IMG/VR virus record: IMGVR_UViG_2974770163_000001 | Span: 1 to 64,000 of that record | Length of the DNA: 64,000 nt | Source: a virus | Taxonomy: Duplodnaviria > Caudoviricetes | Strand: one strand, 5' to 3' | In this document: positions 8,458 to 61,091 of the stretch, one piece after another | How the letters are laid out: each line of letters begins with the position of its first letter | Position numbering within the stretch: position 1 is the first letter of the stretch | Translations under genes and position numbers: made by a program | The notes under the pieces: model-generated | Told to the model about the DNA's origin: nothing | Database searches by the model: none | The model's input: the letters and a program-made list of their open reading frames with translations, nothing else

Positions 8458-9332
8458 AAGTAGAAGATCTATTAACCGGTAAGGGAATTGAGTATACTAA
8501 CGCAGGTGGTGATTTACTTATCACCTGCCTTAATCCCCAACATATTGATGCATCACCGTCTTTACGTGTTGATCGTGAGACGGGGGTTATGCACTGTTTA
8601 GCCTGTGGATTCGGTAAAGGTATACCAAGTATTTTCCATTACTTTAATAAAGAATTGCCGCGATCTCACGGTCGTCTAGCTAAGATACGTGGAATGATAC
8701 GCGACTTTAACACCCTAAACCAAGATTTAGCAATACCAGAGAACTCTATCCCATTTAAGGATGATTACCGAGGAATCTCTGGAACCACATACGAGAAGTA
8801 TTTTGCATTTCAACAACAATCAGACTGGGAGAACAGAATAGTATTTCCAATTACCGATGCTATGGGTAAAAACAAAGCGTTTCTAGGAAGAACTCAGTTA
8901 GGTGATGCAAAGCCAAAATATCTCGTGCGCCCATCTAACATCCCACTCCCCCTGTTCCCTAGCCGTTACGGAGAGTCTGTCATAGTCCTCGTTGAGGGCT
9001 TGTTCGATATGCTCAACCTTGAAGATAAAGGTATGACTAATGTAGTCTGCTGTTTCGGTACACATCAGTTCTCGCCTAACAACATCAAGGAAAAATTCAC
9101 AGCATTAGAAGTATCTGGAGTTAATACGGTAGTAATATTATTTGACAACGATGACTCTGGAAATAAATCAGCGGACTTCCTATTTAAGTTGATCCGCGAT
9201 AAAACTGATATGACACCTATAGTTGGAAATTTCTTAGTTCCATCTTCTAAAGACCCAGGCGATCTAACTGCGGAAGAAGTTGAATCATTAAGCTGGAAAA
9301 TAAATAAACTACTTGCGGAAAAGTTCCAATAG
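8454..9332 (+). CDS. pri: DNA primase
   Basis: Zn-binding C..H.D..PS...C..C, Toprim VEGLFD and FDNDDSG, KDPG. Confidence 0.93.
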   Translation: MKVEDLLTGKGIEYTNAGGDLLITCLNPQHIDASPSLRVDRETGVMHCLACGFGKGIPSIFHYFNKELPRSHGRLAKIRGMIRDFNTLNQDLAIPENSIPFKDDYRGISGTTYEKYFAFQQQSDWENRIVFPITDAMGKNKAFLGRTQLGDAKPKYLVRPSNIPLPLFPSRYGESVIVLVEGLFDMLNLEDKGMTNVVCCFGTHQFSPNNIKEKFTALEVSGVNTVVILFDNDDSGNKSADFLFKLIRDKTDMTPIVGNFLVPSSKDPGDLTAEEVESLSWKINKLLAEKFQ

Positions 9333-20164: not shown

Positions 20165-23048
20165 ACTCGGTTGGTTCTTCAACTCTAGGTGGTACAGTCC
20201 ACCCGTCTTCTTGGATTTGTTTCTCTGTCTGCTCGATACCCTCTAAAGCCTCAATACGTTCGGCTTCTAGGGCTGCTAACCTCTCTTCCTCAATCTTCTC
20301 ATTTTCTAGCCGTGTAGCCAAAAGTTTTCTACTGTATATAGAGTCCTCTGGCATCTGCACACGAACATCCAACCACGTATTATCTGGTATATCTGCTGCC
20401 TCACCATCTGTATAGTAGGTAATAGTATCCCCTTCTATCTCCTTAATACGAGTGTTTTGAAATTGTTCTGGAACATTATCATGTTGTCTATGATATGTTT
20501 TAATTTCTATATCACCATTCGGGAGGATCTTTGTATTTACCCATAGTAACGGCTGGTCATTCTCGTCTTTAGGAACTACCACACCTCCTCGAATACCCCA
20601 ACCACCATCAGAATTGAATCCTAGAGTGCCGTGAATTACGTAGTGACCTACTCCAAGTTTTTCAAAAGTCACACCCTCAGACTCTTTATTAGTCGTACAG
20701 CTATCTTTAAATACTTTTACAACGGGAGAAGCTATCTTAATAAACCCATTAGGGTCCCTAGTAGTATTATTAGAGTCTAGCACGTCAACCCATGCAATAT
20801 CCCCTCCTTTCCCTACTTCGGCTACCCAACGAGTTTTTATACTACCATCCTCTCCTAAGAATAGTTGCCCCTTTCTATTCTCAGCAAATTTAGCCTGAAT
20901 CATAACACCAGTATTAGGCATCCCAAACTTGATAGCGTCAGTTTGTGTTCCGGCACCGAAAAATGCGTTGTCGTCCCTATAGTACTGTTTGCCCTGAATT
21001 TGGGTAACTATATCTAACCACCCCATAGGGAAATCAGTAGAGTTAAACCCAGCAATCCTATACTTTAAAGACCCAAGATGAGAGCGTATAAATCTGAATT
21101 GCAATGCCCCAGCGTACATTTTATCATCTTGAGCACTAAAGTTGATAATAGTAGCATCATCAGCTCCTTGCCCCATCTTGTACATACCAGACCCGGCGTT
21201 ATACGCAGGAGGGGTAGAGTTCCATGCTACTACGCCTCTAGGGAAGAAACTAGTTCCCCCTAAGGACAACTCAGTAGTAATCATAGATCTATTGTTACCT
21301 TTCTGAAAGTATGCTTGGTCAGAGATTTCTATAGCTGTGCTGTTCTTCTCATTACTGATGAAGAATCTAGTAGATCCACCAGGGAACCCAATAAAAGCAG
21401 ACATATTGCCGTCTAGGGTACTAAGACCGTCATGGAAGGATATTCTGTTTTCACGTTGAGTTGCTCCTGTTACCATCTTAAGCCTATTGGCAGATGATTT
21501 CTGCACTACTAGATCTTCAAAGGTAGTGCCTCCAGAGGCGGTAACAACTACATCACGCGTACCGTTCCAAAACCCTTTGTTGAGTACTTTCATAAAGATA
21601 TACCCATTATAAGTATACGCAGTTAGCACCCCATAAGTAGTTTCAGCGCTAGAGGAGGTTATATCATCTCTACCATTAGTCCATATGTAGTTTGTATCAT
21701 CCCCGAACCCATTAACCACGTCCTTAGTAGAGAAGTAGAAACCTGTCTTGGCAGTTTTAAAAAACTCTAGTATATCAGTACCATTGGGGATATGTATACG
21801 TACTTTTGGATAACGTTTATCAGTATTCTCTATGGTTGGAAGCCCCATTGCCGCTTCCTTAGCAGCATCCTCAGATCTTTTAGCCTCTGCTGCAGAACTG
21901 GCTGACGCAGCGGCTGATTCAGCTGAGTTGGTCTCAGATATTTTAGCAGCTTCCTGAGATTTCGCAGCCTCCTCTTGTGCTTCCTTAGCCGTGCTTGCAT
22001 AAGTTTCAGCGGACCTTTCATAAATCCTAGAATTATTTGCTGAGGTAGCTGAGTTTCCCGCAGATGACCTAGAAGCATTTGCCATTGATGTTGCGAGTGC
22101 TTGGTATCTATCTGCTTCTGTCTCTGATGTCTTAGCGTTTGTCTCTGATGTCTTAGCGTTTGTCTCTGACGTTTTAGCTGCGTCTTCGGAGGCTTTTGCA
22201 TTAGTCTCAGAACCTTTAGCTGCTTCTGCACTGGCGGCAGAATTTACCTCAGAAGCTGCCGCAGCAGTTTGAGAAGCCTTAGCAGCGTCCTCTGACTTCT
22301 TAGCGGCAATAGCATTGGCAGCAGTTTGGGCAACTTCATCTGATATGCTTTCAGCAACATCAGCAGCTGCCTTAGCTGATGCAGCGGCGTTGGTCTCAGA
22401 TGTCTTAGCGTTAGTCTCAGATGTCTTAGCATTAGTCTCAGATGTTTTTGCATTAGTTTCGGAGACTTTTGCCTTAGATGCCGAATCCTTAGCCGCTCCT
22501 GCACTATTAGCAGAATTTACTTCAGAGGTTGCAGCAGCAGTCTGGGAAGCCTTGGCAGCATTTTCTGACGTTTTAGCGGCTGATGCACTAGCAGCTGCCT
22601 GAGCAGCCTCGTCAGAAACACTTCCAGCACTATCCGCCGCAGCTTGAGCAGATGTAGCAGCCTTAGTTTCGGACGCCTTAGCGTTTGTTTCAGATGTTTT
22701 AGCTTTAGTCTCGGATGCCTTAGCGTTTGTTTCCGATGTTTTAGCTGCGTCTGCACTCGCTTTAGCCTTAGCTTCTGAATCCTTAATATTAGCCAAACTA
22801 GTAGCAGAAGCATCTGCACTCGCCTTAGCAGCATTTTCTGACTTTTTAGCTTCTGTTTGAGAAGTTTTAGCCGCGTTAGCCGCATTTTCGGAACGGGTGA
22901 TTGCGTCCCCCAAGTCTACTGAGGAAACTCCAGTAATAGAGTTAGATAGGTTTACAACAAAACTTGGGTATTGTCCTGCATTTATGCTGTTGTCTTTATC
23001 TGACGCTTTTGTAACCGTAATCCTTGTGTAAACGTTATCCTGTTCCAT
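20163..23048 (-). CDS. ltf: L-shaped side tail fibre
   Basis: Ala/Ser-rich AKTSETN coiled-coil repeats; C-terminal NTT.D.NGFIK.ASPVV fibre domain; position. Confidence 0.88.
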   Translation of the reverse strand: MEQDNVYTRITVTKASDKDNSINAGQYPSFVVNLSNSITGVSSVDLGDAITRSENAANAAKTSQTEAKKSENAAKASADASATSLANIKDSEAKAKASADAAKTSETNAKASETKAKTSETNAKASETKAATSAQAAADSAGSVSDEAAQAAASASAAKTSENAAKASQTAAATSEVNSANSAGAAKDSASKAKVSETNAKTSETNAKTSETNAKTSETNAAASAKAAADVAESISDEVAQTAANAIAAKKSEDAAKASQTAAAASEVNSAASAEAAKGSETNAKASEDAAKTSETNAKTSETNAKTSETEADRYQALATSMANASRSSAGNSATSANNSRIYERSAETYASTAKEAQEEAAKSQEAAKISETNSAESAAASASSAAEAKRSEDAAKEAAMGLPTIENTDKRYPKVRIHIPNGTDILEFFKTAKTGFYFSTKDVVNGFGDDTNYIWTNGRDDITSSSAETTYGVLTAYTYNGYIFMKVLNKGFWNGTRDVVVTASGGTTFEDLVVQKSSANRLKMVTGATQRENRISFHDGLSTLDGNMSAFIGFPGGSTRFFISNEKNSTAIEISDQAYFQKGNNRSMITTELSLGGTSFFPRGVVAWNSTPPAYNAGSGMYKMGQGADDATIINFSAQDDKMYAGALQFRFIRSHLGSLKYRIAGFNSTDFPMGWLDIVTQIQGKQYYRDDNAFFGAGTQTDAIKFGMPNTGVMIQAKFAENRKGQLFLGEDGSIKTRWVAEVGKGGDIAWVDVLDSNNTTRDPNGFIKIASPVVKVFKDSCTTNKESEGVTFEKLGVGHYVIHGTLGFNSDGGWGIRGGVVVPKDENDQPLLWVNTKILPNGDIEIKTYHRQHDNVPEQFQNTRIKEIEGDTITYYTDGEAADIPDNTWLDVRVQMPEDSIYSRKLLATRLENEKIEEERLAALEAERIEALEGIEQTEKQIQEDGWTVPPRVEEPTE
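22100..22790 (-). repeat. Blocks of 21-bp (7 aa, AKTSETN) tandem repeats within ltf
   Basis: Iterated GTCTC(T/A)GATGTCTTAGCGTT units. Confidence 0.8.
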
Positions 23049-49070: not shown

Positions 49071-49686
49071 CAACTATACTTGTTATAATTATATTCGAGA
49101 TATGTATATCTTCTACAATACTTAGCTAGGATATGTTATGGGAATCTTAGAAATTACAGCCATAGTAGGTTTAGTATATGTGGTTATAGGACTACTTACC
49201 TGGGCAGCTCACAGAGGAGTATACTAGATGATACCAGCTTGGGTATTAGGAGCAGTAATTGGTGGGGTAACAATCAGTATACCGTTAGCCTTATTTGTAG
49301 GAGCATGCTACGATGATTAGTTATCCGTTATTAATAGTTTGTGCAGTAGCTGGATCTATAGTTGGCGCATGTTTGGGCATAACTGGGTATATGCCTTTAA
49401 TTCTACGATTAGCAGGTAAACATGAGGAGAAACATAAAGATGCGGAAGTCTGATGATGGGAAAAGCATAATCTTCACTGAAAGTGAAGCCATGTGGTTCT
49501 TCCTCCTGTTCCCAGGCATATGGTTTACCTTAGTTCTTGGTGGAATAGCAATTCTGTTACCATTCTTTATTTAGACTTAGTGAGGCTTTTATGGACGTAG
49601 TGAAACTTTTAGAGATTGTAGTGGGTTTTGGTGGGATGGCATTAGTCTTCTTACACTATAACGACTTGTGGATCTTTCGTAAGTAG
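49067..49686 (+). CDS. Six consecutive 20-46 aa hydrophobic micro-ORFs
   Basis: 49067-49129, 49138-49227, 49228-49320, 49313-49453, 49440-49574, 49591-49686; each has an SD-like motif or a stop/start overlap. Confidence 0.6.
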
Positions 49687-49702: not shown

Positions 49703-49876
49703 AGACGCCTAAAGACTCTTTCATCGAAAAATCTTGATGCTTATAGACCATTGAGTGTGGTAGAACCGTTTAGACGCCTAAAGACCTTTCATCGAAAAAT
49801 CCTGATGCCAAGTTCCCATTGAACGTGGTAGAACCGTTTAGACGCCTAAAGACTAATTCATCGAAAAATCCTGATG
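49703..49876 (+). repeat. About 2.5 tandem ~68-bp repeats near the probable terminal-repeat junction
   Basis: AGACGCCTAAAGAC..TTCATCGAAAAATC.TGATG at 49703, 49772 and 49840. Confidence 0.85.
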
Positions 49877-49954
49877 GGTTACGTGTGGGTGTGTGCAATA
49901 GGGGTGGGGGCTTGGGCTAGTCTCCGAACCGCCCCCTATTGTATCACGGTTGCT

Positions 49955-50194
49955 TTAGTTTGTCAACGGTTGCACACTCAAAAGATTTGTAAAGTTTTGT
50001 AAGATAATTCTTAAAGCTAGGTCTTTACTATTTGGGCTACCATCTGACAAAGCACTTGATGCTATATCTATAATGGCATCAGCCGCTACCCGATTAATAA
50101 CTAAGTAACCTTTAGCATTTAATTCTACTACTAATTGATTAAGTTGTTCTTGGCTCATTTCTTTGTTAGGGCTTAATTCGATAACGTTTGACAT
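49955..50194 (-). CDS. Pre-early hypothetical protein
   Basis: GAGGT RBS before MSNVIEL. Confidence 0.65.
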   Translation of the reverse strand: MSNVIELSPNKEMSQEQLNQLVVELNAKGYLVINRVAADAIIDIASSALSDGSPNSKDLALRIILQNFTNLLSVQPLTN

Positions 50195-50290
50195 AATGAC
50201 CTCACACAATTTAAGAATATTGATATTAGCTGGTTAACGTCTAACTAAGTAACTAACTAGGGCTAACCAACTAATAGAGATTATATCAAA

Positions 50291-51007
50291 CTAGGCAGAA
50301 ATAGCAACCAGTTTATTAAACTTACTGCTTAAATAGTCTCTTTCTTCCTGAGTATAACTACACCATGCCGTTTCGATATGTTCCGCTAATGCTTCAGGGT
50401 CGTGTAGTTCTTCCATCACTTGATCAATGAATTGTTCACCAGCCATGCGATAACCAACGTTTAACACGTCATTAACAAGCGTAGCATCTACAACTTGAAA
50501 GCCCATTTCACGAGCAACAGATAACACGCCTTGATGATCATCGTAAACGGTTATAACAGCGTTTGGATACATAGCTTGCAAGATTTCAAAGTATTTCCGC
50601 TTATATTCAGCATCACGGCTATAATAAACGTCTTTGATATCTTCAAGGGCAAAATAACGGGCTAAGGTAGTTCTGCTCATGATACTGGCGGCTTGCGGTT
50701 TATTAGTTGTTAAACCTTGTTTGCGTAGGTAGTAATAATCGGATTTATACATTGTTCTGGCTGTTACTATTACGTTATGAGTATCACCCTTATTGATATT
50801 CTCTTTCATGACAGCCGCTAAGGGTAGCAGTGTATCAGCTTGTACTAGCTCATGAGTACAAGCATTTTGGATATATCCAGTTAAATCTAGGTTGCCCGTT
50901 TCTTCGTCTAGGTATGGTCTAACACGATGAAAGCTATTTATTACAGTGCCATCAAGGTCAAAGATATTAAGAAACTTGATATCATTAAATACTCGTGTTT
51001 GTTGCAT
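50291..51007 (-). CDS. dmp: Deoxyribonucleoside-5'-monophosphatase (HAD family)
   Basis: IFDLDGTVINSFHRV, TAR, YDD; position in the pre-early region. Confidence 0.92.
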   Translation of the reverse strand: MQQTRVFNDIKFLNIFDLDGTVINSFHRVRPYLDEETGNLDLTGYIQNACTHELVQADTLLPLAAVMKENINKGDTHNVIVTARTMYKSDYYYLRKQGLTTNKPQAASIMSRTTLARYFALEDIKDVYYSRDAEYKRKYFEILQAMYPNAVITVYDDHQGVLSVAREMGFQVVDATLVNDVLNVGYRMAGEQFIDQVMEELHDPEALAEHIETAWCSYTQEERDYLSSKFNKLVAISA

Positions 51008-51093
51008 GGTTGTTACCTCTCGCATTTAAGCGGTTTATTTTTGGAGTTCTAAGTATAAAGAAAGCCCCTGAGTATATCAAGGGCTTAACAGTG

Positions 51094-51558
51094 TTATTCT
51101 TCGGTGAACAAAGCAGGCTGAACAGGATTAATAAAAGTTACTTTAATTTTGTAAGGGCTTTCGCTTCTAGCATTAATAGGTGATACTAGCACTTGCCAGC
51201 CAGCTTCTACAAAGTCCGCTAGGTCTGAGAATAAAAAATCACTCTCTGTCATTAATACAATAACTTCGGTTACATTAACCTTAGTCGTATCAATATCAAT
51301 AAAGGAGTAATAATCCTCTAATGATTTTGCAACATTTTCTATATGTTGAGTAGGCAAGCCACCCGTTACACCCTCCGCAATGTTGCCAAAAATACGGGGT
51401 AAAGCCGATTCGATAGCAGCCGCAACGCTTGCCGCTTCTTGGTCGTTGTTGATCAAGCCTTTACCATAACGAATAATTGAGCCGTCAACAATGTTAATAT
51501 TCTCAATAGCCCCGTTGTCAAATGTTTTGCCGTTGCTGTATACAGTGATCATTTTCAT
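51094..51558 (-). CDS. Pre-early hypothetical protein
   Basis: 154 aa ORF. Confidence 0.7.
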   Translation of the reverse strand: MKMITVYSNGKTFDNGAIENINIVDGSIIRYGKGLINNDQEAASVAAAIESALPRIFGNIAEGVTGGLPTQHIENVAKSLEDYYSFIDIDTTKVNVTEVIVLMTESDFLFSDLADFVEAGWQVLVSPINARSESPYKIKVTFINPVQPALFTEE

Positions 51559-51580
51559 GGTTGTTCTCTCTTATTAAGGT

Positions 51581-51781
51581 TTATTCGATTTCGTAGCCAT
51601 CACTATCTAGGATAGTAGAATCTACATTTTCGTTAAGTTGTTCTTGCTCCGCTTCGGTACGGATAGCGGCTTGCTGATCATATGTTAAGGAGTTCCATTC
51701 TTCAACGGATAACCCCGTTTCTACAACGTGGGCAGCCCCTAGCCCATAACCAAAAGTAACATGAATGTTAACAGTTTTCAT
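51581..51781 (-). CDS. Pre-early hypothetical protein
   Basis: Abuts the upstream gene; CAGGA RBS. Confidence 0.65.
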   Translation of the reverse strand: MKTVNIHVTFGYGLGAAHVVETGLSVEEWNSLTYDQQAAIRTEAEQEQLNENVDSTILDSDGYEIE

Positions 51782-52012
51782 TTAATTGTATTCCTGTTTA
51801 ATTCGTGCTATTTGGTGCATTGGGTAAAAGTATTCAGTATCGGGCGTGTCAGTGAAACTCACAAACAAGCCAGCCGTGTCAATATCAACGGTATCGACAT
51901 TCTCAAATACTACCTCTTTTGCATCTTCTTTAAGAAAGCCGTTAGCTTTTAACTTAGACATAACAGCATCAATAAAGATAACCTTAACAACAGTTACATG
52001 TTTCATATTCAT
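51782..52012 (-). CDS. Pre-early hypothetical protein
   Basis: EYFYPMHQIARIK C-terminus; GGAG RBS. Confidence 0.65.
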   Translation of the reverse strand: MNMKHVTVVKVIFIDAVMSKLKANGFLKEDAKEVVFENVDTVDIDTAGLFVSFTDTPDTEYFYPMHQIARIKQEYN

Positions 52013-52068
52013 TGCTCCAATGGTAGCCCCTACACAATATAGGGGCGTTGGGTTTAAATTTAAATTAA

Positions 52069-53832
52069 TTAAGCGCGATACTTGCCATTTGTAATTCTTA
52101 CTAGCTGGCGTTGCCCGTTGTTATAGGTAATCAAGTGCGTTTGAGTCCAGCTAGAAGCCCCGATATTATAGCCCATATCTAATGAGCCAGCAACTCCAGC
52201 AGTGTAACATAAGCCGTTTACGCTTGCACTATGAGTGTGACCAGTATTTAAGCGTCCTAACTTCGCAAACTGTTTTGGATTCCCTCGTGAGCCATTAGCC
52301 CCAACATGACCATGACAGCCCATTTCTACGCCAGCGACCTTGAAAGATTCGTCAACAACTAAGAAGCGTATTTGCTCGGCATTCTCTAGCTTAGCTATCT
52401 TTTTAAGCCCTACTTCTAGCGCATTCCAGCCACTGGCGGATTTATGTTCCGCAATATGGCGATATTTATCAAGGTTCATTTCATGATAGAGAATGGCGTT
52501 AGCAGGATCTAGCCCTATATTAACATCCCATGCTTTCAACCAATTTGCTAGGGCTAAATCGTGGTTTGACTCAACGACAACTATCTCACTAAATGGGCGC
52601 ATGATATCGCGGAAAATGTTAGCCGTATCAATGAGATCTTGTTTAACGCTTTCTTGCCCTAAATAATAACGCTCCGCAATAAAATCATAATCACGTCTAT
52701 TGTGATGATTTCGGCTTGTAAAGTCGTGGCTATCATGACAGATAGTAAACTTAGGCTTTAACAAGTCAATCATCGACGGGTAGCCATGCAAGCCAGCACC
52801 CCATGAACAAGCCGCTACAACATGATCAATCTTTTCTGCATGAAGATCACCGAACTGTAAAGCAGAAACATGATTTTCAGCTCTAAACACTTGATCACTT
52901 GTTACATAAGTATCAAGATCATAAAACGAGCCATCATCATTCATGCATTGTAAATGGCGTATAAATGGCGTGTCGTTATCGTCGAATTCTACTAAGATTG
53001 CACCATAGCAATGCAATGATTCTGCTTTCTGACCAGCTAGGCGCTGAATATAATTTCGATGCGTAACCGTTCCCGTTGTAGTTAACTCTCTAACTAGCTC
53101 ACCTTTTAGAGCAGGAATATTAAACATCTGATACTTGGCAGCAGGTACAACCGCATGATGATTGCCTATAATGCTTTCAATGCCTGTTAATGGGTTAATA
53201 GCAGTAGGGGAAATGCATAAAGCACCTAAGAAAGATACTTTCTTGCTTTCGCCTAGAAACACGTTTTCCTCAACAAAATAAGGGGTTAATTCTGGCGCAT
53301 ACCACAATGAATCATCTTGCGCGGTCGGATTCGCGTAGCCTTTCTTGTTATATGCAAATTTAGAGATGATTAATTCAGCCCCTAAATATTCTGCATACGT
53401 TTCTAAGGATTTCAGGAAAGGCACGTTAACAGACGTGTTATTTTGAGCCGTTGTCAAAATAAATGCCTTGCCTGATTTAACTTGCCATTTTGATTGAGCA
53501 GGTTTGAGCGAGCCACCATATACAGGCAAATCAGGGTTATCAGCTTTACGGGCTTTAGCCTTTGTTACTGGCTTGTTCTCATTCAGCCATACTCTGATAG
53601 CAGCCGTGAATTCTGGTTTAATGACTTGCTCCCCGTCCTCGGTGTCATACGCTAGATTTTCCGCTATAACATCCGCTAAACTAGACAGGGCAAACGCTTC
53701 GTTTGCCGTTTTATCTTTTACGGATTCTAGGCGTTTTCCATAGTAATTAACGCCTTTAGCGCATTCTAGCAGGTCAGCCGCCAGATTTTTATCTGCTAAT
53801 AGGTCTGAAATAGTTTTTAAAATGGGATTCAT
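52069..53832 (-). CDS. A1: A1 protein (host DNA degradation / second-step transfer)
   Basis: FILTTAQNNT, GDLHAE, SNHD.AL, GCHGH.G.NGSRG.P, GHTHS, YN.GASSW. Confidence 0.93.
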   Translation of the reverse strand: MNPILKTISDLLADKNLAADLLECAKGVNYYGKRLESVKDKTANEAFALSSLADVIAENLAYDTEDGEQVIKPEFTAAIRVWLNENKPVTKAKARKADNPDLPVYGGSLKPAQSKWQVKSGKAFILTTAQNNTSVNVPFLKSLETYAEYLGAELIISKFAYNKKGYANPTAQDDSLWYAPELTPYFVEENVFLGESKKVSFLGALCISPTAINPLTGIESIIGNHHAVVPAAKYQMFNIPALKGELVRELTTTGTVTHRNYIQRLAGQKAESLHCYGAILVEFDDNDTPFIRHLQCMNDDGSFYDLDTYVTSDQVFRAENHVSALQFGDLHAEKIDHVVAACSWGAGLHGYPSMIDLLKPKFTICHDSHDFTSRNHHNRRDYDFIAERYYLGQESVKQDLIDTANIFRDIMRPFSEIVVVESNHDLALANWLKAWDVNIGLDPANAILYHEMNLDKYRHIAEHKSASGWNALEVGLKKIAKLENAEQIRFLVVDESFKVAGVEMGCHGHVGANGSRGNPKQFAKLGRLNTGHTHSASVNGLCYTAGVAGSLDMGYNIGASSWTQTHLITYNNGQRQLVRITNGKYRA

Positions 53833-53907
53833 TTATATAGCTCCTAATTAAAGGGTTTTAGTGGTAACGAACTAGCCACCTCCGAAAAGGTGACTAGGGC
53901 GAATCAC

Positions 53908-54372
53908 TTATAAGCGATCGATGCCGTTTTCTTCCATAATGCCCTGTAATACATCATCAGGACATACCTTTTTAACAATCATAATGATTGTATCAAGGTT
54001 GGCTTTTTCAAGACTAGCCCAATCGTCTTTTTCTTGATCGTTGTCGGACATATCACGCTGAAGGGCACGAATCAGAGTGATTTTTTGTAATTTCTTACCG
54101 CCGCCAACTGGCTGCTTTACTTCAAGGGCACGATAAATTTTGTTGCCGTTTTCATCTTTAGAAGATGACAACTTAGTACGGACAGCCGTAGCCGTGTACG
54201 TTTCACCATCACCGCTAATTTGTTCACCGATAGACGCTAGATTATCGACAGCGTTTGCCGCTGTGATTTCCGCATCAGTTGGGGCGGTTGGGTCAGCAAA
54301 TGCCGCTAAATATAAATCGATAGCTTTTGCGGTTACTTCTTCATTCCAGCGTTTTTTAGATGGAGTAGACAT
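53908..54372 (-). CDS. A2: A2 DNA-binding protein (second-step transfer)
   Basis: WNEE.T.KA..LY, AVRTKLSS, VGGG...K, ASLEKANL.T; upstream of A1. Confidence 0.8.
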   Translation of the reverse strand: MSTPSKKRWNEEVTAKAIDLYLAAFADPTAPTDAEITAANAVDNLASIGEQISGDGETYTATAVRTKLSSSKDENGNKIYRALEVKQPVGGGKKLQKITLIRALQRDMSDNDQEKDDWASLEKANLDTIIMIVKKVCPDDVLQGIMEENGIDRL

Positions 54373-54571
54373 AATTTAATACCTCATTTTTCATGGTTTA
54401 AGTTTAAGTTATACACTTCTCATTAGTGTATTATGAATAGAGCCTGTCTGTCAAGCCCTATTAATTACACTATCAAGAGGAGTCTAAGCAATGGCAACTG
54501 CTTAATGAAGCCCTGAATTTCAAGGCTTGTTTAAGCATCCAATCTTAGCTATTTCACCGTGTTTTCCGTAT

Positions 54572-54583
54572 TGTTAAAGAGCG
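54572..54583 (-). promoter_or_regulatory. boxA antitermination element
   Basis: CGCTCTTTAACA, matching the rrn-type boxA consensus, just downstream of a promoter. Confidence 0.7.
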
Positions 54584-54609
54584 TGGTTAGTTGCCTAACC
54601 TTTGAATCT

Positions 54610-54638
54610 ATCTTATATCAGCCGCCTGGTTAAGTCAA
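54610..54638 (-). promoter_or_regulatory. Pre-early promoter
   Basis: TTGACT-17-TAAGAT. Confidence 0.75.
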
Positions 54639-54642
54639 GCGT

Positions 54643-54942
54643 TTATTTCCAAATACTTCTATTAATGCTTTGTTGCGATTCTATCGTTTCTACAACTTGA
54701 ATCACTATACCTAGATTATGCCATGCTTCGCTTGCCTTGTCAAACAGTTTTTTATCACCGTTGAAATACTGATCTAGCGTAGCTTTGTAAGCGTTGCGAA
54801 TTATCTTAGCTTCTTTCTTAAGCCTTGTCAAGTCAATTTTATGATCAATTCGCTCGGTTAACGCTTCGTTTGCTGTTATGCCTTGTGAAGCTACTAAGGT
54901 ACATAACACTTGGTTAAAAGATTGTTTTGCCATGTTTGCCAT
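54643..54942 (-). CDS. Pre-early hypothetical protein
   Basis: GAGG RBS; its own promoter and boxA. Confidence 0.7.
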   Translation of the reverse strand: MANMAKQSFNQVLCTLVASQGITANEALTERIDHKIDLTRLKKEAKIIRNAYKATLDQYFNGDKKLFDKASEAWHNLGIVIQVVETIESQQSINRSIWK

Positions 54943-54980
54943 TCCTCAATAGTTGGGTAGGCGGCTGATATAAGTTAGAT

Positions 54981-55037
54981 TATTAAAGAGCGTGTTTCTA
55001 TGGTTAGTATCTTAAAGCCTAGTAAAGTTTTTGTCAA
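54981..55037 (-). promoter_or_regulatory. Pre-early promoter plus boxA
   Basis: TTGACA-17-TAAGAT (55009-55037), then CGCTCTTTAATA (54981-54992). Confidence 0.75.
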
Positions 55038-55379
55038 TTACTTATTTGAGTATTGCATAACATTTTCAATATATACGATTCTAGCCGCTATATATAAGCA
55101 ACGATAGAATCGTAAAGCTAACTGATCTTTACATATCCCATAGTGAGTGGGCATTTTTGACGCTTCGGGAAATTTTTCTTCTAGGTCTGATAATAAGCGA
55201 ACTAATGAAGCCCATTTAACAGAACCATTATCAAGCCCCTTTTCAAGATCTAACATGATGCAAGTTGCTACCTTATCGATATCATTTCTAACCACTATAG
55301 GAAATGATAATAATTCTAGTATTAACTGTAATGTATCATTGCTTAAAAAGGTTGCTTTAATCTTTCTTACTTTTGCCAT
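55038..55379 (-). CDS. Pre-early hypothetical protein
   Basis: GGAG RBS; 113 aa. Confidence 0.7.
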   Translation of the reverse strand: MAKVRKIKATFLSNDTLQLILELLSFPIVVRNDIDKVATCIMLDLEKGLDNGSVKWASLVRLLSDLEEKFPEASKMPTHYGICKDQLALRFYRCLYIAARIVYIENVMQYSNK

Positions 55380-55428
55380 TTGTACTTACTCCGATAGTAT
55401 ACACTAGGCTTTAAGATACTAACCGTAT

Positions 55429-55555
55429 TTTTAAAGAGCGTTACTACTAGGAACTTATCCAGTCATTCATATGCCACTGGCGGCTACTTCGTGGGCTTTC
55501 CTTGCCTTGTTCCTTACTATGTGGAGTATATTATCACACTGATTAAAGAAAGCAA
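55429..55555 (-). promoter_or_regulatory. Leftward pre-early promoter plus boxA
   Basis: TTGCTT-16-TAATAT with extended TG; CGCTCTTTAAAA at 55429-55440. Confidence 0.6.
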
Positions 55556-55669
55556 CTATTATTTTAGATTATTTTGCTGGCGGTAGGATATAAGGAAACG
55601 GGCGCGTGATTATACACAAGTTAACTAGGAAGTAAAGAAAAACTATTTAGTAAAAGATGCAAAAAGAGC

Positions 55670-55697
55670 TTGCATTTAATAACCGTGGTGCTAATAT
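55670..55697 (+). promoter_or_regulatory. Rightward pre-early promoter
   Basis: TTGCAT-16-TAATAT with extended TG. Confidence 0.65.
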
Positions 55698-55733
55698 GTA
55701 TCACATCGAAAGGCAAACAAAGGAGGGAGCAAA

Positions 55734-56813
55734 ATGACCGTCAAGGCACTTAAAAGCAATCGAGCGATAGCTCGAAGCGGTCACATTAACACAATTGAGC
55801 AATTAAGACAATCAGACGTTGGGGGTTTTCCATCAACTAGTATTGTTAGCCGAGCTACGCCTAGGCAGCTTAATAATATAATGCATACGGCAGGCAATGA
55901 GGAGCAATCTGTATTAACTCCTTTAAGTAGTCAAAGTGCGTATAAACATATTAAAAATTTGCTTGATTTACTTGTTTCCGGTGTGGTAGAATACATTACA
56001 ATCTACTCGCCAGATGGTACGTTAATAAGTGATCACTATTATTCTACACGTCGATCTATGGAGGAGGATTGCGATTCCGCTTACTCTAAGGCTAAGGACG
56101 ATTTACTAATCTTAGCTAGATCTAGTAATGGCATCATGTTAACATGGGGTAGCTATGACGCTAGAAAGTCGGCAGGTGTCGGGGTCAAGGTAGAGTGTGA
56201 GGTTTTCAATCAAAATGATAACCTATTTGACGCTATCTATGATATATTTAACCATGCTAACTATAACGATTTAATTGACGTGGATTTATCCGATAAGCTA
56301 CGCAATCAGGGCGTTATTATACAGGGTCATACAGTTAGCGAGAACAAGTATACACAAGTAATTATAGAGGAATTTTTAAAATCATCTATAAGCGAAGCTG
56401 GCGAAACAGCAGAGCAACCAATCGAAACCAAAGAGGAAACTAGCAAAATGAAAACAACATTCAGCACTATCTTAGCAGAAAACAAAGCAGCAGCAATCAA
56501 CGCTGGCGAGATGGAAACGGGGCGTTTAGTCGTTAATCGTATTGTGGCAGTCGTTAAAAAGCGTGCTCCGCTAATGGTTAAAGGTTACATTGATACACCA
56601 GTAGGGCGCATTGCAGTAGCAAATTTATTTGCCGCTTTAGTGCGAGAATATCTACCTGATAACGCACTGGCAGGACGTGCGGCAGACGGGGCGGTGAAGT
56701 CGGCAGCTTATGAAGTATTGCGCGATATTGATATACCAGCAATTCTGGAAGAAGTATTGGCAGGATTCAAAGAAGCGGAACCAGCACCAGCAGACGAAAA
56801 GATCGCACTGTAA
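55734..56813 (+). CDS. Pre-early hypothetical protein
   Basis: AGGAGG RBS; C-terminal APLMVKGYIDTPVGR..VAN domain recalled from T5-like pre-early proteins. Confidence 0.75.
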   Translation: MTVKALKSNRAIARSGHINTIEQLRQSDVGGFPSTSIVSRATPRQLNNIMHTAGNEEQSVLTPLSSQSAYKHIKNLLDLLVSGVVEYITIYSPDGTLISDHYYSTRRSMEEDCDSAYSKAKDDLLILARSSNGIMLTWGSYDARKSAGVGVKVECEVFNQNDNLFDAIYDIFNHANYNDLIDVDLSDKLRNQGVIIQGHTVSENKYTQVIIEEFLKSSISEAGETAEQPIETKEETSKMKTTFSTILAENKAAAINAGEMETGRLVVNRIVAVVKKRAPLMVKGYIDTPVGRIAVANLFAALVREYLPDNALAGRAADGAVKSAAYEVLRDIDIPAILEEVLAGFKEAEPAPADEKIAL

Positions 56814-56861
56814 CATAAAGGCAGGGGCTAGAACTTAGCCCCTAATTAAAGAGGTGATACA

Positions 56862-57263
56862 ATGGCAAAAGTTATCAATTTTGAGTGTGTACACGTCTTA
56901 AATATCCGTACAACGGGGCAAGCGTTATCGTGGAAAAGCGCACTAGAACAGATTAGTAAGTGTACTAAATGCCAATATGTTACTGTTACATTAGGTCGCT
57001 TGGTTTTCCGTATTGACTGGCTAATACTGGCTAGTATTTACGAATCTTTACAATTAAATATGCCGTTTAGTGTTGCAGTAGGGGGCGAAATCTGGTATAT
57101 TGAACAATATCAGGACGTGGAACAATTGTTTTATAACGTTCCTGTAAGCCGTCTTTTTATGAAAGAGGGAGTAGCTTATTATGTGGGCGATATTATCGGG
57201 CTATGTGGAGAAGTTACTAAGGGTCAAGGGATTACGAATCATAGTACTGCTAATTTTAGCTGA
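56862..57263 (+). CDS. Hypothetical protein
   Basis: GAGGT RBS. Confidence 0.65.
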   Translation: MAKVINFECVHVLNIRTTGQALSWKSALEQISKCTKCQYVTVTLGRLVFRIDWLILASIYESLQLNMPFSVAVGGEIWYIEQYQDVEQLFYNVPVSRLFMKEGVAYYVGDIIGLCGEVTKGQGITNHSTANFS

Positions 57264-57740
57264 GTTATTATATCGTGTTTTCTTTGAATCTAAGTACTAC
57301 TTTTATACGCTCCAATGACCATATTTAAAGTGTTGCTAGTTAGTGGCTGTATATGTATAGTTTGGCATATATTAGCCCACTGGCTAGATAGTAGACGCTT
57401 AAAACGTATGGGTAAAGGCTGATATCTAACCTATAGGGGGTTATAATGTGGGATCTATTTCTATCCCCCAATGGGGATTTAAGCTGGCTTTCTTTGTTGC
57501 TGGCGGCTGTATGCACTATAGCTATTTTAGTGATCTTTGATGATAACGAGCCGTTACTATAGGGTTTTATATGAAGTGTGACAAGGTAGGCGTATATTGC
57601 AACATTCTAGCGGCTGGCATCTTTGGGTTAATGATTTTATCATGTATCTTAAAGTAATTCTTTATATGTTGGCTATTTTATGCCCTGTGTTCGGGGCTTC
57701 AAGCGGCTTAATGTGGTTAATGACTGTATTAGCAGGATAG
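57181..57740 (+). CDS. Cluster of 24-45 aa hydrophobic micro-ORFs
   Basis: 57181-57318, 57315-57422, 57446-57562, 57571-57657, 57666-57740. Confidence 0.45.
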
Positions 57741-58141
57741 CACAAAAAGCTAAAACAATTTAATCTAGATAGGGTAATATTACCCTACCAACACAAAACG
57801 AGGGTTTAAATATGGAAAAATTAAAACTGGCATTCCCTACTGCATTTTCTGAGCTAGTTGAATGCTTTGGGGAAAAGCAAGCTGAAATTGAGCTTGAGAA
57901 GTTAGTCGAGCGTCAAAAGGTTAACCCTAAATTAGATTTAGAAGATAAGCCATTATTAGCCGCTTTTGTGTGGGAAGAAACGGAACAGGGTCATGAGTAC
58001 TGGCGAGAGCTTTTATACTCAAAAGACCTACTATCACCTTTGTTCTATTTCTTGTCCGACTCTAGCCATACAGACGACGAATAGCACGAAAAGCTAAAAC
58101 ATTTAAATTCAGGTAGGGTAATATAGCCCTACCAACACAAA
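57737..58141 (+). repeat. Two ~60-bp direct repeats, each preceding one of two paralogous genes
   Basis: ATAGCAC.AAAAGCTAAAACA...TAGGGTAATAT..CCCTACCAACACAAA at 57737 and 58081. Confidence 0.8.
57812..58084 (+). CDS. Hypothetical protein (AAF.W....QG.EYW motif)
   Basis: GAGGG RBS. Confidence 0.7.
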   Translation: MEKLKLAFPTAFSELVECFGEKQAEIELEKLVERQKVNPKLDLEDKPLLAAFVWEETEQGHEYWRELLYSKDLLSPLFYFLSDSSHTDDE

Positions 58142-58169
58142 TAAACCAATGATTTGAGAGGTAGTAAAA

Positions 58170-58598
58170 ATGACCATTATCCAACGTATGCCTAAATTTG
58201 TTTCTACTATGGTAGCAGTATTTGACGGGGACGCAGACCTTGCAGCGCAGATCATTAACGAGTTAGAAGCGGCAGGAGTAGAATTCGCAGAAAAAGATTG
58301 TGTTAGCTTGGGGGCGGCTTTTGATTGGCAGCAATCCCCGCAAGGTCGGGAGTATTGGGATATGATGGACGATAAAGCGGAGCAGGTACTAGGCGAAGAT
58401 TACCGCTTGCCAGACTTTCAAGAGTGTGGTTGTCCAGCTTGTCAAATGACCGTTAAACTAGGCGGCACAATTGATGCAATCATGGTTGTAGGATCGCTGG
58501 GCTTGCTAGTAGAGGCTATTCCTGAGCCAATGATCAAAGATATGGTAACTCGTGCTAAGGAAGATCGCCTTAAAGAAAGAGCAGGGCGCACGCACTAA
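58170..58598 (+). CDS. Hypothetical protein, paralog of the previous gene with a CxCxxC extension
   Basis: GAGGT RBS; AAFDWQQSPQGREYW. Confidence 0.72.
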   Translation: MTIIQRMPKFVSTMVAVFDGDADLAAQIINELEAAGVEFAEKDCVSLGAAFDWQQSPQGREYWDMMDDKAEQVLGEDYRLPDFQECGCPACQMTVKLGGTIDAIMVVGSLGLLVEAIPEPMIKDMVTRAKEDRLKERAGRTH

Positions 58599-58669
58599 CA
58601 TTAATTTAGTTGCTAAGTTTATGCCCCCTCTATGTATAATAGGGGGCATCAAAAGAAAGGGGGTAGCAA

Positions 58670-58780
58670 ATGATCTTATTTACTTTGTGGGGCGTTATTC
58701 AGTGGGCTACATTGGTTTATATCCTCGTTACCCCGTATGTATTAAATGCCGTAGTAGCCGCACAGTTAGCAGGCGTATAA
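58670..58780 (+). CDS. 36 aa membrane peptide
   Basis: AAGGGGG RBS; MILFTLWGVIQWATLVYILVTPYVLNAVVAAQLAGV. Confidence 0.5.
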   Translation: MILFTLWGVIQWATLVYILVTPYVLNAVVAAQLAGV

Positions 58781-58831
58781 CTTCTAAGGAGGTTATACAC
58801 AAGTTAACCGTAAACAATCGAGGGTATTAAA

Positions 58832-59101
58832 ATGAAATTATCTAAACTGGTATTAGCTACTTTAGTGTTAAGCTTGGCAGGTTGTGCGACTACTGGCGAA
58901 AAACCAGCTATAACCCCTAAAACGTGTATGGGTATCATGGAAGTTTCGACCATGAATCGCACCTACTCAGTGGACTTGAAAGCCGTCAAAACTAACAAGT
59001 ATGGCGAAACGTTCTATCAGGTTAAAGGCTACAATCCATTTGTAGGCGGGGCAGGTTGGGTTCGTGAAGATGCTTTTCAGTCTGTAATATGTAATGAATG
59101 A
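58832..59101 (+). CDS. cor: Cor-like superinfection-exclusion lipoprotein
   Basis: Signal peptide with LAGC lipobox; C...YSV....GY.PF..WV...F....C pattern of Cor proteins. Confidence 0.7.
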   Translation: MKLSKLVLATLVLSLAGCATTGEKPAITPKTCMGIMEVSTMNRTYSVDLKAVKTNKYGETFYQVKGYNPFVGGAGWVREDAFQSVICNE

Positions 59102-59294
59102 GATCATATATATTAAACGCTTTATATCCCTATACTGGCATTTTATAGGGGTAGTCGAAGCGATGCACGAAAAGGCAGTTAGTGAGAATCACCAATACGG
59201 GATTGACCTAACTAGACGTAAACTAGACCGCCTTAAAATTGATCTGCTAGGCTGGCAAGATAAGCTGATGCACGAGATAAAAAATACAAAATAG
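59094..59294 (+). CDS. Hypothetical protein
   Basis: Overlaps the cor stop. Confidence 0.55.
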   Translation: MNEIIYIKRFISLYWHFIGVVEAMHEKAVSENHQYGIDLTRRKLDRLKIDLLGWQDKLMHEIKNTK

Positions 59295-59297
59295 TCA

Positions 59298-59326
59298 TTG
59301 ACACTATAGCCCTTTCGATGTATATT
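59298..59326 (+). promoter_or_regulatory. sigma70 promoter
   Basis: TTGACA-17-TATATT. Confidence 0.7.
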
Positions 59327-59358
59327 ATATGCATACACCAAAACGAGAGGGCTACAAA

Positions 59359-59628
59359 ATGATTATTCGTATTTCTGGCATTAACATAAATAACGATTTA
59401 GATATGTTTGACGCACTGGCGGGCGCAGGTTATGCAGGGGCACTAGATCGCCTAGACGATATAACAGCAGAGTTAGACGTGAGAGATTATGCCTTTAGAC
59501 AACGGGCAGGGATCGAGGAAGCAGATGTATTACAAATGATCAGTGAGCTTACATCATTAGGACTAACTCTAACGATAGTCGGAGAACCTAACACTAGCCT
59601 ATTAGAAGCCGTGATTGCAGGCAACTAA
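59359..59628 (+). CDS. Last pre-early hypothetical protein
   Basis: GAGGG RBS before MIIRISG. Confidence 0.7.
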   Translation: MIIRISGININNDLDMFDALAGAGYAGALDRLDDITAELDVRDYAFRQRAGIEEADVLQMISELTSLGLTLTIVGEPNTSLLEAVIAGN

Positions 59629-59647
59629 CAACCATAACAACCATAAC

Positions 59648-59675
59648 AGCCTTGCAGAAATGCAGGGCTTTTTTA
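59648..59675 (+). terminator. Terminator ending the pre-early operon
   Basis: AGCCTTGCA-GAAA-TGCAGGGCT followed by TTTTT. Confidence 0.85.
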
Positions 59676-59786
59676 TGCCCCTAGCCTCTCAAGCCCCTAT
59701 AAGACTATCCCTATCACAATTAAACCTCTCACAATGGCTTACAGTGCGTTTCATTGGACAACCGCATTATATGCTATCAGAGACTA

Positions 59787-59802
59787 CTGTATAAATAAAC
59801 AG
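59787..59802. promoter_or_regulatory. LexA (SOS) box
   Basis: CTGT-ATAAATAA-ACAG, preceded by TA. Confidence 0.75.
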
Positions 59803-59811
59803 GTTCAAAAC

Positions 59812-59884
59812 TGTGGATAAGTCCTGTGGATAAGTCGAAATGAATCGATTCAGCAAGCCCCCAACTGGTCAGACCTGTGGATAA
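59812..59884. promoter_or_regulatory. Three perfect DnaA boxes
   Basis: TGTGGATAA (=TTATCCACA) at 59812, 59825 and 59876, all in the same orientation. Confidence 0.85.
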
Positions 59885-59920
59885 CTTCTAAATGCAAGTG
59901 AGAAGCATTCGCATTCATTT

Positions 59921-59992
59921 AGCCGTCTAAACGTCTGGACGTCTAAACGTCTAGACGGCTGGACGTCTGGAAGGCTGGACGTCTAGACGTCC
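59921..59992. promoter_or_regulatory. Nine tandem in-phase Met boxes (MetJ operator-like)
   Basis: AGCCGTCT AAACGTCT GGACGTCT AAACGTCT AGACGGCT GGACGTCT GGAAGGCT GGACGTCT AGACGTCC against consensus AGACGTCT. Confidence 0.75.
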
Positions 59993-61091
59993 CTCTGCGC
60001 TTATGTGCATAATCGGGATCGCTTTTTCAAAACGTTACATGCGAGCTAGGCCACATGTGAATTTCTGAAAATGCAAATTCCAAAATTCTCGAAAAAATTT
60101 TTCCATTCGTAAAATATTCTCTCCTGCTCCCTGGCTGTTTCAATTTCCCTATACTATTTACTCTTCCACCAGCAGTTCTCCAGCCTCAAAAATAAAATGC
60201 AAATATAAAACTGAGTGCGTCTTTTCTATGGAACTCCATTTTATTTTTGATTCTCAGGAATGTGATAGCCTTAGTTTATAAATCAGTTTTGAAAACTCCG
60301 AAAATTTTAAATGCCCAGATCTATCCCAGCAATCCAGTCAGCCAGGGAAGAGGAGAAAACCAAAGAAATCACTTGACAACCAGTTTTGCTAAAGTCAATT
60401 AACCAAATTGATCCACCAGCGTTTTATAAACTAGAATATTATTTGCCCTCAGAATTTAGGTGTGAGCAATTCTCCTGTTCCCCTTCCGAATCTATTGATG
60501 CAGAGGATTCTAGGAATGCAAAATATTTATCGCTGCTAATTTGAGTTGTGGGAAACCTTGGGAAGTTGTTTGGTGGATGCTTGGGGATTTGATCAGTTGT
60601 GCCGGGGAACAGGAGAGGATTTTGTGGGATGCTCAGAAAAATCGTTGTTCGCAGAAAAACGCATTTAAAACAACCCCCCTGGTAGCTAACCGCCCTATAT
60701 CGAAAAATTATGACCTTAAAGGTGGGTAAAGGGCTTGAAAAATAAAAAATTCATGAGGCCCCAAGAACTGGATGATTCAACGGTCGGTATAAACAAATCT
60801 CTCCTGTTCCCAGGCTGTTTTAATTAGATATGATGTGAGATGTGGGTAGGATGAACTTTTATTGTCTAGATATGATGTGGCACGTGGGTAGTGTGATGAT
60901 TTATAAGGGTTAGGAAAGTCTAGGAGTGCACAATTTGTGGAGGGAAGTCACGAGAAGCTTATAGATGTGGAAGTTGAAAAAGGGAACAGGAGAAATTTTT
61001 ATCTAGGAATATCTAGGTAAATGAATCTCACACCTAGCAGAATTCCAGGGTATCAAAGGTTCCAGTTCTATTATTATGTTTAGTATAGATA

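Follow-up and report, generated by a model that had tools for sequence, protein, structure and literature searches.

The transfer of phage DNA into the host in two steps has been demonstrated only in T5 and BF23, according to the Davison preprint, which treats "Repeat Region 3" of T5 as the presumed injection stop signal (Davison, bioRxiv 10.1101/866236). In the T5 record, the annotation of major nick 1 (7.9%) falls on the sequence CCCTGCGC, which is preceded by the direct repeats C and the palindromes E–I, and these in turn by an inverted repeat of DnaA boxes (AY587007). The same preprint quotes the DnaA-box definition TT(A/T)TNCACA and classes Providencia phage vB_PreS_PR1 as a distant "Type 4" phage (10.1101/866236). 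For the repeats and DnaA boxes of the border region, experimental studies are described as lacking in passages of a 2023 paper on BF23 (PMC10644984). The nature of the T5 injection stop signal has been unsettled for decades, and it is into this slot that the array described below falls, with nine boxes of the type bound by the host repressor MetJ.

MetJ binds DNA cooperatively, one dimer per box. With the MetJ operators of metJ/metB and metF the phage array shares 8-bp palindromic units placed head to tail in strict phase, the consensus and the tolerated substitutions. However, the host operators that we scored have 4–6 boxes and 25–45 bits, whereas the array has nine boxes and 85.1 bits, so that its description as oversized in a first-pass annotation of this DNA was apt. 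It also differs from them in having neither a methionine gene nor a clear promoter and in its placement at the border of a terminal repeat, with DnaA boxes and a nick-site homologue as neighbours. A comparable arrangement is known from plasmids, where the omega heptads and the ParG and ParR centromeres are arrays bound by ribbon-helix-helix proteins. These have in common with the phage locus many short in-phase repeats and cooperative coating by small dimers, but in the phage no ribbon-helix-helix or partition gene adjoins the array or is found among the 20 ORFs scanned. The IHF site of lambda cosB is a host-factor site in a phage packaging region and offers a likeness of another kind, namely a host DNA-binding protein as an architectural helper where genome ends form. 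The protein is a different one, the lambda site is a single bend site rather than an array, and terminase action at the present array is only conjectural.

The window, i.e. the whole stretch of DNA analysed here, is taken from the start of a virus record of 109,434 bases, of which it forms the first 64 kb. Providencia phage vB_PreS_PR1 (Demerecviridae, Priunavirus) is its nearest relative among the phages of the collection, with 85–95% identity in the DNA around the array, and the host of this uncultured phage is taken to be of the Providencia type from its likeness to PR1. The earlier designation as a lytic phage is in keeping with its T5-like, and hence virulent, type. Homologues of the pre-early genes dmp, A1 and A2 are found to the left of the array, all on the minus strand: a dmp-like nucleotidase gene (50291..51025; phrog_415, E 7e-34) in the position of dmp in T5-like records, the gene for the A1 DNA transfer protein (52069..53832; phrog_1745, E 2e-198), the product of which is 98% identical to PR1 A1, and the gene for the A2 DNA-binding protein (53908..54372; phrog_1725, E 4e-27). 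The terminal repeat is present as a single copy in the record and was mapped, through homology with the annotated PR1 repeat, to 49870..60780 (no strand; edges accurate to about 25 bases on either side). The array is located ~10.05 kb from the left and ~0.8 kb from the right edge of the repeat. From this we infer virion DNA of ~120 kb with two copies of the array per genome, one at ~8.4% from the left end and one ~0.8 kb from the right end. No ORF of at least 60 aa occurs between 59,794 and 60,541, and the array lies in non-coding DNA at the right border of the terminal repeat, a region regarded as containing the injection stop signal of T5.

Several other elements were observed in and around the repeat. 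An 89-aa pre-early ORF at 58832–59101 (+) has a match to phrog_27799 and a weak one (E 2.6e-06) to a Cor superinfection-exclusion family. At, or just outside, the mapped left repeat edge is a 68-bp tandem repeat of 2.5 copies (49703–49876), each of which begins with AGACGCCT. A motif of 15–21 nt, CTCCTGYTCCC..., is present in direct orientation at 49503, 60121, 60472 and 60801 and inverted at 60339 and 60600, so that it flanks the edges of the terminal repeat from either side; it could correspond to the T5 repeats D/A or be a terminase site. Farther away, at 22119–22766, there is a large nested tandem repeat (21 bp/273 bp), probably inside a coding region.

The array itself covers 72 bp (59921..59992, no strand) as the unbroken string AGCCGTCTAAACGTCTGGACGTCTAAACGTCTAGACGGCTGGACGTCTGGAAGGCTGGACGTCTAGACGTCC, which, when cut every 8 bases, yields nine units in one phase and without any spacer. 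Eight of the nine match AGACGTCT at seven of eight positions, and the unit at 59969–59976 matches at five (three mismatches). Tandem Repeats Finder reports a period of 8 with 7.6 copies and 79% matches, and also a period-16 reading. In the 64-kb window as a whole, 30 matches to AGACGTCT with at most one mismatch were found (21.0 expected from shuffles), and eight of these are boxes of the array, in one phase. For scoring, we used the met-box weight matrix and the thresholds of Augustus and Spicer (2011; Table 3 and Methods of PMC3228920), by which a unit has to reach at least one quarter of the consensus score (3.15 bits) and a site at least the consensus score (12.58 bits). All nine boxes pass, at 3.3–10.7 bits, and the array totals 85.1 bits. 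With the same matrix, the remainder of the 109,434-base genome contains four further sites, each of two boxes and 13.6–15.7 bits, and the maximum in 30 first-order Markov random genomes was four boxes and 21.2 bits. The observation of nine contiguous in-phase 8-mers, eight of them at 7/8, is confirmed by the sequence and the matrix score. The first-pass annotation had further likened the variation between units to that of natural operators rather than to a slippage repeat, and this also holds: there are six distinct 8-mers among the nine, and the substitutions follow those of natural met boxes. In pattern scans of IMG/VR, the matches listed were mostly perfect 8-mer microsatellites with 1–4 distinct units, usually one or two, and among these listed matches mixed met-box arrays were seen only in two contigs, L025 and L199.

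The surroundings of the array are ordered, from left to right, as a terminator hairpin, three DnaA boxes, a hairpin, the array, CCCTCTGCGC and a DnaA-type box. The terminator-like hairpin (59648..59669, +) closes the rightward pre-early operon, and PR1 has a terminator annotated at the same position. The three DnaA boxes are exact matches to TTATCCACA on the minus strand (59812..59820, 59825..59833 and 59876..59884), the first two forming a 13-bp direct repeat. Exact matches to TTATCCACA in the window number three, all in the array region, against 0.58 expected. An imperfect hairpin or palindrome (59888..59922, no strand), identified by computed folding, abuts the array and contains CATTCGCATTCA, which is also found beside the T5 nick region and in Aeromonas phage AhSzw-1. 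Across the right end of the array, the sequence CCCTCTGCGC (59990..59999, +) resembles the annotated T5 major-nick-1 (7.9%) site CCCTGCGC, and a nick at CCCTCTGCGC is predicted from this T5 homologue. To the right of it is the further DnaA-type box TTATGCACA (60004..60012, −), which fits TT(A/T)TNCACA, followed by ~1 kb of DNA with few ORFs and many repeats. The ORFs and profile matches around the locus include no methionine gene. No convincing promoter was found at the array, the sole promoter-like site being a 9/12 consensus match (59984..60013, +) that overlaps the last box and the nick-site homologue. With neither a methionine gene nor a convincing promoter, the array is not an operator in the usual sense. 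Of the earlier designation as a MetJ operator, the MetJ part is favoured by the 8-bp phase, the matrix score and the substitution spectrum, and the operator part fails for want of a met gene and a clear promoter.

The comparison with Repeat Region 3 of T5 brings out both likeness and replacement. Both loci follow the pre-early genes and a terminator, occupy the right-hand, non-coding end of the terminal repeat at ~8% of the genome, and have DnaA boxes and a GCGC nick-site homologue. The DnaA cluster of an injection-stop region is found here as three exact boxes plus TTATGCACA. The direct repeats C/E and the palindromes E–I of T5, on the other hand, are absent, and the met-box array is in their place; since the T5 order is DnaA boxes, repeats, nick, the array occupies a slot that is filled by other repeats in T5.

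The T5 slot was itself found to have look-alike sites of another kind. The sequence TGATAATNATTATCA is what we take to be the core motif of the Fur box. In the T5 slot with repeats C and palindromes E–I (376–535 of AY587007 9100–10500) there are four matches to TGATAATNATTATCA with at most three mismatches, the best with one. Shuffles predict 0.15 matches, and four were reached in 0 of 200 shuffles. The idea that Fur boxes generally accompany the slot was rejected, as they are clear in T5 and patchy in other phages. In Vibrio phage D411, the slot (8760–9000 of the examined piece, from the nick-like motif to the DnaA boxes) has about four AT-rich repeats of ~55 bp and no met boxes, and behaves like an exchangeable cassette. 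In T5-like phages, the injection-stop region may be an assembly of sequences that resemble the binding sites of host DNA-binding proteins.

When the window is aligned with PR1, a conserved block of ~335 bp stands out, with ~96% identity compared to roughly 60–75% in the flanks (estimated from the printed alignment). The block comprises the DnaA boxes, the hairpin, the array, the nick-site homologue and ~140 bp beyond. Inside the array there are three differences, all in the two weakest boxes, both of which are still boxes in PR1. The PR1 array has nine boxes and 88.5 bits, with per-box scores equal to those of the window for the shared boxes. Among other T5-like phages, arrays were found in the Vibrio phages VPT02 (eight boxes, or nine by simple matching; 59.6 bits), D254 (eight boxes; 65.6 bits) and Chester (3+4+4 boxes; 22–31 bits each), in the 111.5-kb IMG/VR contig L025 (nine boxes; 68.3 bits) and in Aeromonas phage AhSzw-1 (16 boxes; 138.9 bits). 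In these five and in PR1, consensus DnaA boxes are found ~35–200 bp from the array, and the flanks of VPT02, D254, AhSzw-1 and L025 show a GCGC-containing nick-like motif on the other side of it. The matrix scan detected no met-box array in the 1.4-kb iss locus of T5, nor within 14 kb on either side of A1 in Pectobacterium phage DU_PP_V, Klebsiella phage VAC51 and Vibrio phage D411. Any role of the array must be dispensable or replaceable, since the stretches examined of T5, DU_PP_V, VAC51 and D411 are without one. Nor was one found in Vibrio phage 424E50-1, perhaps not a T5-like phage.

Arrays of the same kind are also found in phages unrelated to T5. A BLAST search with the AhSzw-1 array matched 96 records, some of which were then checked with the matrix. 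All but three of these (93 of 96) have names derived from ten genera belonging to Enterobacterales, Vibrionales or Aeromonadales; the other three carry two further names, which among the 60 records listed are Pseudoalteromonas (Alteromonadales) and Xanthomonas. In the Asteriusvirus jumbo phages vB_Ec-M-J and SD-2_S15 there are 14 boxes, located in the former ~0.8 kb from the left end, within the terminal repeat, and in the latter in the middle of a record with unmapped ends. The Mimasvirus phages CBB (a Pectobacterium phage; 7+4+2 boxes) and XbC2 (a Xanthomonas phage; 8+4+2 boxes, 1494–1621 of the examined piece) have theirs 0.68–0.75 and 0.65–0.71 kb from the end, respectively. Nine boxes are located 37 bp from the left end in E. 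coli phage PGT2 (Autographiviridae, Ermolevavirus), six at the inner edge of the right repeat in Klebsiella phage NNA-G4 (Drulisvirus), 4+4 at 153–265 bp from the left end in Pseudoalteromonas phage RIO-1 (Zobellviridae) and 12+4+3+2 at 0.6–0.7 kb from the record end in the unclassified 46-kb Vibrio phage D164. Overall, the arrays of the jumbo, T7-like and RIO-1 phages either are separated from a genome end by 0.04–0.8 kb or adjoin the edge of a repeat. The jumbo (Asteriusvirus, Mimasvirus) and T7-like (Ermolevavirus, Drulisvirus) arrays share with that of the window the phased units, the fit to the matrix and the position at an end or repeat edge. They differ in having no adjoining consensus DnaA box and, in the Asteriusvirus record, no match to A2. 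Beside the arrays of phages that are not T5-like, no consensus DnaA box was found, and in most of these loci matches with one mismatch are scattered 170–750 bp away. We know of no two-step injection in the array-bearing jumbo and T7-like phages.

This distribution can be set against that of MetJ, for which we rely at the level of orders on Augustus and Spicer (2011), in passages of which MetJ is reported from five orders, including Enterobacterales, Vibrionales and Aeromonadales (PMC3228920). In a class-wide sample of 400 genomes, we found MetJ in three. The spread of the arrays over hosts of MetJ-bearing orders makes a conserved host protein a simpler explanation than a phage protein. XbC2 is a counter-example to MetJ, as judged from its sequence and host label: it has a good and conserved array, and its listed host, Xanthomonas, is outside the MetJ orders. 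Its array is ~88% identical to that of CBB (our own count from the printed alignment), compared to 73.5% in the surrounding 1 kb.

A search for MetJ in the presumed host group returned four Providencia and two Morganella loci, and MetJ was present in all four of the Providencia loci. The proteins aligned (four Providencia, one Morganella) are 91–93% identical to that of E. coli and invariant over residues 10–45, which we take to include the DNA-reading strand. With the matrix, the E. coli operators score 31.2 bits (metJ/B, four boxes) and 24.9 bits (metF, four boxes), and the regions upstream of metJ in Providencia have 5–6 boxes and 32–45 bits. Individual box variants of the phage array are found in the E. 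coli operators as well, and the operators of Providencia make use of the same variants. For a quantitative comparison, 130 symmetrised half-boxes from six phage arrays (the window, VPT02, D254, AhSzw-1, an Asteriusvirus and L025) were compared with 832 natural half-boxes; the array borders had been chosen by likeness to the consensus, a choice that favours no particular replacement base. The order of bases is identical in the two sets at position 2 (G>A>T>C), position 3 (A>C>G>T) and position 4 (C>T>A>G), and at position 1 A exceeds G in the phage arrays as it does in the natural boxes. Over the 12 non-consensus cells, the Spearman correlation is 0.77 (p = 0.003), with the proviso that transitions make up three of the four second-choice bases common to both sets, and mutation bias could favour these as well. 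At position 3, a transversion is preferred, the non-consensus bases of the phage half-boxes being 34 C, 1 G and 0 T. A MetJ encoded by the phages themselves was not found, there being no PF01340 match in the six records searched (the phage under study and five other array-bearing phages), and a scan of 20 ORFs within the repeat and next to it revealed no ribbon-helix-helix Pfam family. The best reading of these sequence comparisons is that the array would bind host MetJ-SAM.

What such binding would be for is a question of position. On balance, we think it probable that the array is a maintained set of nine MetJ-type met boxes that would be coated by host MetJ-SAM and would act with DnaA as an architectural part of the border and end region. 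Once the DNA reaches the cytoplasm, the host MetJ-SAM holorepressor would coat the array cooperatively with about nine dimers. In the left copy of the repeat, which would be the last DNA to enter before the injection pause, the coat would separate the DnaA boxes from the nick site; its distance from the genome end in the right copy would be ~0.8 kb. Together with DnaA, the coat may hold, mark or shield the border and the end-proximal 0.8 kb and, via SAM, it could report the metabolic state of the host. The array would then be neither a regulator of a phage gene nor a sponge for MetJ. What the arrays have in common, namely that a repeat edge or a physical end is close by and that those of T5-like phages lie between DnaA boxes and nick, favours an architectural role. 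A function as a helper of the terminase at the repeat edge comes as a close second. A role of the MetJ coat as a direct "stopper" is physically doubtful, since a soluble cytoplasmic protein cannot alone halt DNA that is being pushed in.

Alternatively, the array could be the site of a phage-encoded protein (A2, the small terminase or another), the likeness to met boxes being convergence or coincidence. The array region is full of other repeats that are presumably bound by something, the arrays are found near repeat edges, where terminase must act, and the array of XbC2 has been kept in a phage whose host order is without MetJ. A2 in particular is a DNA-binding dimer in T5, as stated in the Davison preprint (10.1101/866236), and a Klebsiella record labels the gene in the A2 position, just upstream of A1, as "tandem repeat DNA binding protein". 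However, T5 has A2 and yet no array in the iss locus, and a search for A2 gave no match in the records of the Asteriusvirus and AhSzw-1, while its matches in two Vibrio phages have only 29–41% identity. Despite this absence or divergence of A2, a single consensus and a single spectrum of substitutions apply to the arrays. The model of A2 (mean pLDDT 72) consists entirely of helices, without the beta-ribbon of MetJ-type readers, and the lack of a ribbon-helix-helix family among the 20 ORFs likewise speaks against a phage reader of that type. As a ligand, A2 finds no support: homologues are few, PDB sequence matches are not significant and the best Foldseek E value is 1.5. Taking these points together, we consider a phage-encoded binder unlikely. 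The palindromic units could instead act through the shape of the DNA, by forming a cruciform, a hairpin or slipped strands that might pause ejection or guide the nickase or terminase without a sequence-specific protein. As single-stranded DNA, the array of the window folds well (−21.3 kcal/mol, z = −5.9), and T5 has palindromes in the same slot. The array of the Asteriusvirus also folds strongly (z = −5.4) and that of D254 to an intermediate degree (−3.4). Yet four of the seven arrays fold weakly (VPT02, −2.0; AhSzw-1, −2.3; L025, −2.0; Chester, −1.1), by which the hairpin is ruled out as a feature common to the arrays, whereas the 8-bp phase and the matrix fit are kept in all seven. Nor are the box variants set as matched arms, the longest arms being 73–89% complementary, and we regard structure by itself as very improbable.

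In another version of the MetJ reading, MetJ would bind but the purpose would be that of a decoy, the thousands of boxes present after replication derepressing the met regulon and raising methionine and SAM. The array is stronger than every host operator scored, there would be two copies per virion genome, as judged from the repeat, and replication raises the copy number further. Against this, homologues of A1 and dmp are present, which in T5 are tied to early breakdown and shut-off of host DNA, so that host genes could hardly respond. A decoy would also work independently of its position, but in every lineage examined the arrays keep to repeat borders and ends. The titration of MetJ for raised Met/SAM synthesis, put forward in the first-pass annotation, is in our view decidedly unlikely, because early destruction of host DNA, established in T5 and probable here from the A1 and dmp homologues, would leave little to derepress. 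That the array is a neutral leftover repeat without function would agree with the four T5-like loci examined that have none. This we find hardly credible, given that the array is in a ~96% conserved block with flanks of 60–75%, reappears in this slot in different genera and close to the ends in unrelated families, and consists of mixed units rather than slippage copies.

Full-text literature searching found no link of MetJ or met boxes to phage repeats, and neither "MetJ" nor "met box" occurs in the main text of the Davison preprint (10.1101/866236). The present analysis adds the Priunavirus case, with the cleanest boxes among the arrays examined, the quantitative match of the substitution spectra and XbC2 as a counter-example. 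For the injection stop signal, the array names a concrete candidate partner in MetJ, a non-essential host protein that can be purified and has a small-molecule switch (SAM). An array of such strength would also serve in engineering as a compact, SAM-dependent protein-docking site. A far-reaching possibility, which we regard as speculative and rather improbable, is that terminal-repeat phages of MetJ-bearing hosts have repeatedly recruited SAM-loaded MetJ as a structural protein of genome ends. In T5-like phages, the MetJ coat and DnaA would then be part of the injection stop, and a SAM dependence of the pause, of the release of the second step or of end processing would amount to a metabolic checkpoint at DNA entry. 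More generally, with such arrays close to the genome ends in phage families that are not related to one another, it would seem that phages put a host repressor to a use not yet described.
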